From NCBI RefSeq assembly GCF_003334355.1, contig NZ_QOWP01000106.1: a DNA stretch of 464 bases; one strand, given 5' to 3'. Source of the stretch: Escherichia coli (GTDB lineage: Bacteria; Pseudomonadota; Gammaproteobacteria; Enterobacterales; Enterobacteriaceae). The notes under the pieces are model-generated. The model saw only the letters and a program-made list of their open reading frames with translations. It searched no databases and was not told the origin of the DNA. Shown piece after piece: positions 1 through 464 of the stretch; the first letter of the stretch is position 1, and each line of letters begins with the position of its first letter. A program made the position numbers and the translations under genes.

Positions 1-63
1 ATGACTGGGGTGAAGTCGTAACAAGGTAACCGTAGGGGAACCTGCGGTTGGATCACCTCCTTA
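1..63 (+). rRNA. rrs: 16S ribosomal RNA, 3'-terminal fragment (5' part lies upstream of the window)
   Basis: Seen in sequence: universally conserved 16S 3' end GTCGTAACAAGGTAACCGTAGGGGAACCTGCGGTTGGATCACCTCCTTA. The anti-Shine-Dalgarno core CCTCC is at 56-60 and the mature 3' end ...CCTTA is at 63. The helix-45 GGAA loop is at 37-40, with adjacent adenines 39-40 matching E. coli A1518/A1519. The 5' boundary is truncated by the window. Confidence 0.95.
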
Positions 64-131: not shown

Positions 132-208
<77 letters not shown>

Positions 209-225
209 AATTTGCACGGCAAATT
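209..225 (+). other. Small A/T-rich hairpin in the tRNA-Ile to tRNA-Ala intergenic spacer
   Basis: AATTTGC (209-215) pairs with GCAAATT (219-225) around the 3-nt loop ACG. Alternatively a 6-bp stem with a 5-nt loop. It starts immediately 3' of the tRNA-Ile CCA end. Confidence 0.25.
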
Positions 226-250
226 TGAAGAGGTTTTAACTACATGTTAT

Positions 251-326
251 GGGGCTATAGCTCAGCTGGGAGAGCGCCTGCTTTGCACGCAGGAGGTCTG
301 CGGTTCGATCCCGCATAGCTCCACCA
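251..326 (+). tRNA. alaT/alaU/alaV: tRNA-Ala, anticodon TGC (UGC), with encoded 3' CCA
   Basis: The acceptor stem is 251-257 (GGGGCTA) paired with 316-322 (TAGCTCC) and contains the G3-U70 wobble (G253-T320), the classical alanyl-tRNA synthetase identity element. The anticodon stem is CCTGC (277-281) / GCAGG (289-293), with loop TTTGCAC and anticodon TGC at 284-286. T loop TTCGATC, discriminator A323, CCA at 324-326. Confidence 0.97.
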
Positions 327-352
327 TCTCTGTAGTGATTAAATAAAAAATA

Positions 353-386
353 CTTCAGAGTGTACCTGCAAAGGTTCACTGCGAAG
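353..386 (+). promoter_or_regulatory. Imperfect stem-loop with GCAA tetraloop directly upstream of boxA; boxB-like element of the spacer antitermination region (tentative)
   Basis: Hand-folded. The outer stem pairs 353-356 (CTTC) with 383-386 (GAAG) and 359-362 (AGTG) with 377-380 (CACT), separated by a 2x2 mismatch. The inner stem pairs 364-367 (ACCT) with 372-375 (AGGT), closing the GNRA-type loop GCAA at 368-371. A hairpin followed by boxA is the arrangement in rrn leader and spacer regions. Confidence 0.4.
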
Positions 387-389
387 TTT

Positions 390-402
390 TGCTCTTTAAA
401 AA
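390..402 (+). promoter_or_regulatory. Spacer boxA-like transcription antitermination element (binding site for the NusB/NusE-containing antitermination complex)
   Basis: The motif TGCTCTTTAAAAA at 390-402 matches the rrn boxA core GCTCTTTAACAA at 11 of 12 positions, and lies in the expected place between the spacer tRNAs and 23S. The call rests on the motif alone. Confidence 0.6.
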
Positions 403-430
403 TCTGGATCAAGCTGAAAATTGAAACACT

Positions 431-448
431 GAACAACGAAAGTTGTTC
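431..448 (+). other. Perfect 7-bp hairpin with GAAA tetraloop in the distal spacer (probable precursor-rRNA structural or processing element)
   Basis: GAACAAC (431-437) is the exact reverse complement of GTTGTTC (442-448), closing a GNRA tetraloop GAAA at 438-441. A T430-G449 wobble could extend the stem. Function is not determinable from sequence. Confidence 0.3.
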
Positions 449-464
449 GTGAGTCTCTCAAATT

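Follow-up and report, generated by a model that had tools for sequence, protein, structure and literature searches.

Can a single wobble pair in an acceptor stem tell both which amino acid a tRNA carries and whether its gene is in working order? The question is raised by a 464-nucleotide stretch of Escherichia coli DNA, here called the window, in which positions 251-326 were proposed from the letters alone to form a functional tRNA-Ala gene bearing the G3·U70 identity pair and an encoded CCA. Both partners in this proposal are already known, the tRNA-Ala gene as a textbook gene and G3·U70 as a textbook identity element. The result is best regarded as a quality control, in that a tRNA identity element was located and interpreted correctly from raw sequence. 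The features of the window are as follows.

1-63, plus strand: 3' end of the 16S rRNA gene (rrs), matching positions 1471-1533 of the Rfam SSU_rRNA_bacteria model; the rrsA annotation stops at window position 63.
132-208, plus strand: tRNA-Ile(GAU) gene of the ileT type, from ARAGORN, Rfam and RefSeq annotation, 42 nt upstream of tRNA-Ala.
251-326, plus strand: tRNA-Ala(UGC) gene, 76 nt including the encoded CCA, from ARAGORN, Rfam RF00005, the match to alaT/alaU/alaV and RefSeq.
253, plus strand: G3, the 5' partner of the G3·U70 identity wobble, from the acceptor-stem register.
284-286, plus strand: anticodon TGC, tRNA positions 34-36, from the ARAGORN anticodon at position 34.
320, plus strand: U70 (T in DNA), the 3' partner of G3·U70, from the acceptor-stem register.
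323, plus strand: discriminator base A73, read from the sequence.
324-326, plus strand: genomically encoded 3'-terminal CCA, positions 74-76, read from the sequence.
390-464, plus strand: spacer toward the 23S rRNA, with a boxA-like TGCTCTTTAA at 390-399 and the Rfam family StyR-44 at 394-464.

Since the 3' end of the 16S rRNA occupies the start of the window, the tRNA-Ala lies in a 16S-23S spacer, and the RefSeq gene order at matching loci runs from 16S rRNA through tRNA-Ile and tRNA-Ala to 23S rRNA. This position, between the two rRNA genes and downstream of tRNA-Ile(GAU), is that of an ileT-alaT type rrn spacer tRNA. The StyR-44 match reaches 81.5 bits (gathering score 54) over the last 71 nt, where it is cut by the window end, and in K-12 the 23S rRNA starts 46 nt farther on. 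TGCTCTTTAA occurs once in the window, where 0.01 occurrences would be expected by chance, and we take TGCTCTTTAAAAA at 390-402 to be similar to the rrn boxA antitermination element. The window scan found no promoter-like or terminator-like sites, and minus-strand Rfam matches to OxyS, Plastid-ycf2 and HPnc0260 were weak and far under their gathering thresholds.

Running ARAGORN on the window, the check suggested with the original prediction, returned a tRNA-Ala with anticodon TGC at exactly 251-326 on the plus strand, with a G·U at 3:70. The Rfam tRNA model RF00005 matched 251-323 at 65.6 bits (gathering score 29, E = 3.6e-14) in an alignment that covers the full model from 1 to 71 and flags zero non-standard pairs; the stretch thus belongs to this family by a cloverleaf that scores above the gathering threshold. 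The acceptor stem consists of G251-C322, G252-C321, G253·T320, G254-C319, C255-G318, T256-A317 and A257-T316. Rfam and direct reading agree on this register, and the pairing of G253 with T320 at 3:70 was exact as predicted. All 21 of the 21 cloverleaf pairs are standard, with G3·U70 as the sole wobble, and G20 falls at window position 270. By each feature that defines the isotype the gene is a tRNA-Ala: an NGC anticodon at 34-36 (TGC), G3·U70 (G253·T320), and the accompanying G1-C72, G2-C71 and A73 (G251-C322, G252-C321 and A323). In ViennaRNA the minimum-free-energy fold of the bare tRNA-Ala is an extended hairpin at -31.8 kcal/mol, against -29.2 kcal/mol for the cloverleaf, and the acceptor stem is present in both. 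A non-cloverleaf minimum is common for unmodified tRNA sequences. The structure was defined by the covariance model and ARAGORN, and the energy fold was left out as evidence.

Recognition of alanine tRNA through G3·U70 is a classic result of 1988, often called part of the "second genetic code". That the pair is the main determinant for alanyl-tRNA synthetase (AlaRS), as had been stated for the window, is well grounded in the literature, which describes it as the major determinant, in E. coli first (PMC9976931, PMC6055181). E. coli tRNA-Ala(UGC) is the very molecule on which the rule was established; changing G3·U70 to G3-C70 or A3-U70 abolishes charging by AlaRS, while moving the pair into other tRNAs confers alanine acceptance on them (PMC9976931). 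The E. coli enzyme reads G3 directly in the minor groove, where a conserved Asp contacts its free 2-amino group, and competing pairs are repelled by a conserved Asn (PMC6055181). Outside mitochondria, every known tRNA-Ala keeps G1-C72, G2-C71 and A73 in addition to G3·U70 (PMC9976931).

How specific the pair is can be judged at three scales, the smallest being the window itself. The tRNA-Ile(GAU) at 132-208 shares A73 and an encoded CCA (206-208), carries a U5·G68 wobble (T136·G200) and has G3-C70, which makes it a built-in negative control for G3·U70. The second scale is E. coli K-12, where 13 regions with 50 annotated tRNA genes yielded 29 complete distinct sequences for all 20 amino acids and the initiator. 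Among these, a G·U at 3:70 is confined to alanine tRNAs, namely the UGC isoacceptor with 3 genes and the GGC isoacceptor with 2, and neither G·U nor U·G stands at this position in any of the 27 distinct non-Ala sequences. Two items were left out of the K-12 set: valU, which is cut by the end of region L005, and an unannotated 72-nt ARAGORN "tRNA-Arg(tcg)" in L011 (K-12 2817000-2819500, the argQ-serV region), an artefact whose acceptor stem is unpaired.

The third scale is a cross-species control, for which one genome per species was scanned with TTGCANNNNNNRGGTCNNNGGTTCRANYCC, a probe that spans the anticodon to the T arm and leaves the acceptor stem untouched. At least 120 loci (L015-L134) were retrieved; the taxa among the matches listed include Proteobacteria, Firmicutes, Actinobacteria, Bacteroidota, spirochaetes, Thermotoga, candidate-phyla-radiation lineages and two archaea. 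In setting the acceptor register, the T-loop served as the anchor of the 3' strand. Seven ARAGORN tRNA-Ala calls (L026, L061-L063, L105, L107 and L122) take in the T that precedes G1 and so begin one base early. Apparent "G3-C70" alanine tRNAs and three apparent non-Ala G3·U70 cases were shifted stems and disappeared after T-loop anchoring. Both tRNA-Ile(GAU) and tRNA-Ala(UGC) were present in 64 of 111 loci among the matches listed.

Among the matches listed, G3·U70 was found in 112 of 113 tRNA-Ala genes (110 UGC, 3 CGC), and no G·U or U·G stood at 3:70 in the 208 non-Ala tRNAs from the same loci (Fisher exact p ~1e-87), figures that restate the G3·U70 rule in numbers. Across both control sets, the cross-species one taken for the matches listed, the pair is confined to tRNA-Ala, whether the UGC, GGC or CGC isoacceptor. 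The earlier reading that G3·U70 establishes tRNA-Ala independently of the anticodon therefore holds over this range. It might still be argued that the G·U in the window is a chance wobble with no diagnostic value and that the tRNA could belong to another isotype. Wobbles are indeed common elsewhere in non-Ala acceptor stems, as G·U and U·G together occur 9, 5, 0, 7, 15, 9 and 4 times at pairs 1 to 7 of the 208 tRNAs among the matches listed, and the neighbouring tRNA-Ile has its U5·G68. At 3:70, however, such a wobble occurs in no non-Ala tRNA of the K-12 set or of the cross-species matches listed, and the anticodon TGC independently specifies alanine in a molecule that also has A73, G1-C72 and G2-C71, which leaves a chance wobble extremely unlikely.

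The behavior of the remaining stem pairs adds to this picture. Among the matches listed there are 96 distinct tRNA-Ala(UGC) sequences, of which all 96 have G1-C72 and 95 each have G2-C71, G3·U70 and A73, in agreement with the conservation reported in the review (PMC9976931). These sequences comprise 35 different acceptor stems in which 3:70 stays G·U, while pairs 5:68, 6:67 and 7:66 vary in a compensatory manner, each taking four to six standard pairs. The constancy of 3:70 amid freely varying pairs is the pattern that would be expected of a selected identity element.

Turning to whether the gene works, the G·U pair alone is no proof of function; the functional argument is carried by the intact cloverleaf together with identity to a characterised gene. 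Over all 464 nt the window has 0 mismatches to the K-12 MG1655 rrnA spacer (ileT-alaT), an identity of 100%, and it differs from rrnD at 2 positions (78 and 84) and from rrnH at 4 (78, 84, 338 and 437). These four spacer positions, which tell apart the three K-12 operons of the Ile-Ala type, all lie outside the tRNA-Ala. By its identity to alaT, alaU and alaV the gene is thus a member of the ileT-alaT type.

One could nevertheless suppose that this is no working gene but a pseudogene, an integration-site remnant or some other tRNA-Ala copy that is decayed or incomplete. Copies of this kind do exist. In the actinomycete MAG JAKAQL010000071.1 (L091:8234-14516) an integrative element of 6.2 kb occupies a tRNA-Ala(UGC) gene, with the intact gene 6.2 kb away from a 50-nt direct repeat of the tRNA-Ala 3' part that is 98% identical. 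Between the repeats lie a tyrosine integrase (13208-14335, minus strand; phrog_1, E = 1.5e-62) and a primase/helicase (9833-12463, minus strand), and the partial repeat is a leftover attachment-site copy of the element. ARAGORN calls this copy a tRNA-Ala. A true 5' acceptor strand is missing from it, 4 of the 7 acceptor pairs are present, and G3·U70 is absent. By contrast, the window tRNA-Ala is full length, keeps its complete set of standard stem pairs and its 65.6-bit score, is identical to alaT/alaU/alaV and sits in an intact, universally conserved rrn spacer. The chance that it is a decayed copy is minimal. In this comparison G3·U70 separates working genes from a remnant, which supports the argument made in the original prediction that the pair marks a functional, undecayed gene; the identity to alaT/alaU/alaV, the intact rrn spacer, G1-C72, G2-C71 and A73 favor the same conclusion.

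A separate exception comes from the rrn spacer of Vibrio hannami (NZ_JARQZP010000006.1, L048:7441-8152), whose tRNA-Ala(UGC) at 7708-7784 has a 5' acceptor strand of 7 nt (GGGCGAT) and a 3' strand of 8 nt (ATCGCTCC) before ACCA. The stem can be drawn in two ways, either with G1-C, G2-C and G3·U kept and followed by a bulged C, or with seven pairs, a shifted G2·U71 and a CACCA tail. Just upstream, at 7529-7598, lies a degenerate tRNA-Glu of 30 bits. A metagenome scan with the anticodon and T arm of this tRNA-Ala gave 0 matches. This tRNA-Ala may represent either a genuine variant or a mistake in the assembly.

Least probable of all, and practically negligible, is a protein-coding region on either strand with an incidental tRNA-like fold: mechanical ORFs do overlap the tRNA-Ala (173-346, plus strand, 57 aa, GTG start; 236-436, minus strand, 66 aa, TTG start), but each is a short frame that has a non-ATG start and falls within the spacer of an rRNA operon, RefSeq has no CDS at matching loci, the scan of the window for promoter-like sites was empty, and the evidence for an RNA gene is overwhelming.

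The encoded CCA had been described as typical of enterobacterial tRNA genes, a statement that the evidence supports for E. coli. With CCA at 324-326 directly after position 73, the gene has the form of E. coli-type tRNA genes, and the triplet is encoded in all 29 of the 29 distinct K-12 sequences sampled. According to PMC6468291, CCA is encoded by every tRNA gene of E. coli, and a strain that lacks cca shows a mild phenotype only. Among the matches listed, 54 of the 96 distinct tRNA-Ala(UGC) sequences of other taxa encode it and 42 do not, and it is present in 215 of 321 tRNAs of the cross-species sample overall. The data support an encoded CCA as typical of E. coli and not as a general bacterial feature.

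Taken together, positions 251-326 are almost certainly a functional E. coli spacer tRNA-Ala(UGC) gene of the alaT/alaU/alaV type, located in an rrnA-type 16S-23S spacer 42 nt downstream of tRNA-Ile(GAU). From what is established for E. coli about transcription, processing by RNase III, RNase P and 3' trimming, and decoding, its path to a working tRNA can be sketched. The tRNA-Ala would be transcribed within a single rrn precursor, whose rRNA stems would be cut by RNase III. Its 5' end would be made by RNase P, and its 3' end by endonuclease cleavage followed by 3' exonuclease trimming that would stop at the encoded CCA; with the CCA already encoded, the CCA-adding enzyme would be needed for repair only. 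AlaRS would then charge the tRNA with no anticodon contact, through G3·U70 in the acceptor stem, and the charged molecule would decode GCN alanine codons through U34. For the window tRNA, charging with alanine by AlaRS is predicted from its identity to E. coli tRNA-Ala(UGC). It is very unlikely that the spacer tRNA-Ala, beside accepting alanine, also functions in cis as part of the rRNA precursor, with its fold or its acceptor-stem G·U helping to order the processing of the 16S-23S spacer.

The window is widespread within the species. In a megablast search it was matched in 5426 of 5426 complete E. coli genomes, with at least 80% of its length covered in 5408, and the best match had at least 99% identity in 5084 of 5435 matching E. 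coli records, the top records being 100% identical. Plasmids accounted for 14 of the 44429 matching places of the rrn spacer in E. coli genomes. The best-listed match, in strain E2865, lies at an rrnH-like chromosomal position between gmhB and dkgB, so spacer alleles are common to several operons across strains. Aeromonas phage AP1 (MT713136, 254 kb) also has a tRNA-Ala that matches the E. coli gene at 100% identity. The phage collection as a whole holds 376 records with a tRNA-Ala-like match, several of which (AFYI01..., AGRM01...) are Salmonella genome contigs with an identical tRNA-Ala.

Compared with characterised systems, the closest relatives of the window gene are alaT (b3853), alaU (b3276) and alaV (b0203) in the rrnA, rrnD and rrnH spacers of K-12, whose 76-nt sequence matches it exactly and whose operons have the same gene order of 16S, tRNA-Ile(GAU), tRNA-Ala(UGC) and 23S. 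The second alanine isoacceptor of K-12, the tRNA-Ala(GGC) encoded by alaW and alaX, shares the acceptor stem GGGGCUA/UAGCUCC with its G3·U70, as well as A73 and the encoded CCA. It differs in the anticodon GGC and in its anticodon-stem and T-stem sequences, and its genes lie outside the rrn operons, adjoining pdeA and yfeC. In other bacteria and in archaea, the spacer tRNA-Ala(UGC) genes are unlike the window gene at acceptor pairs 4:69 to 7:66.
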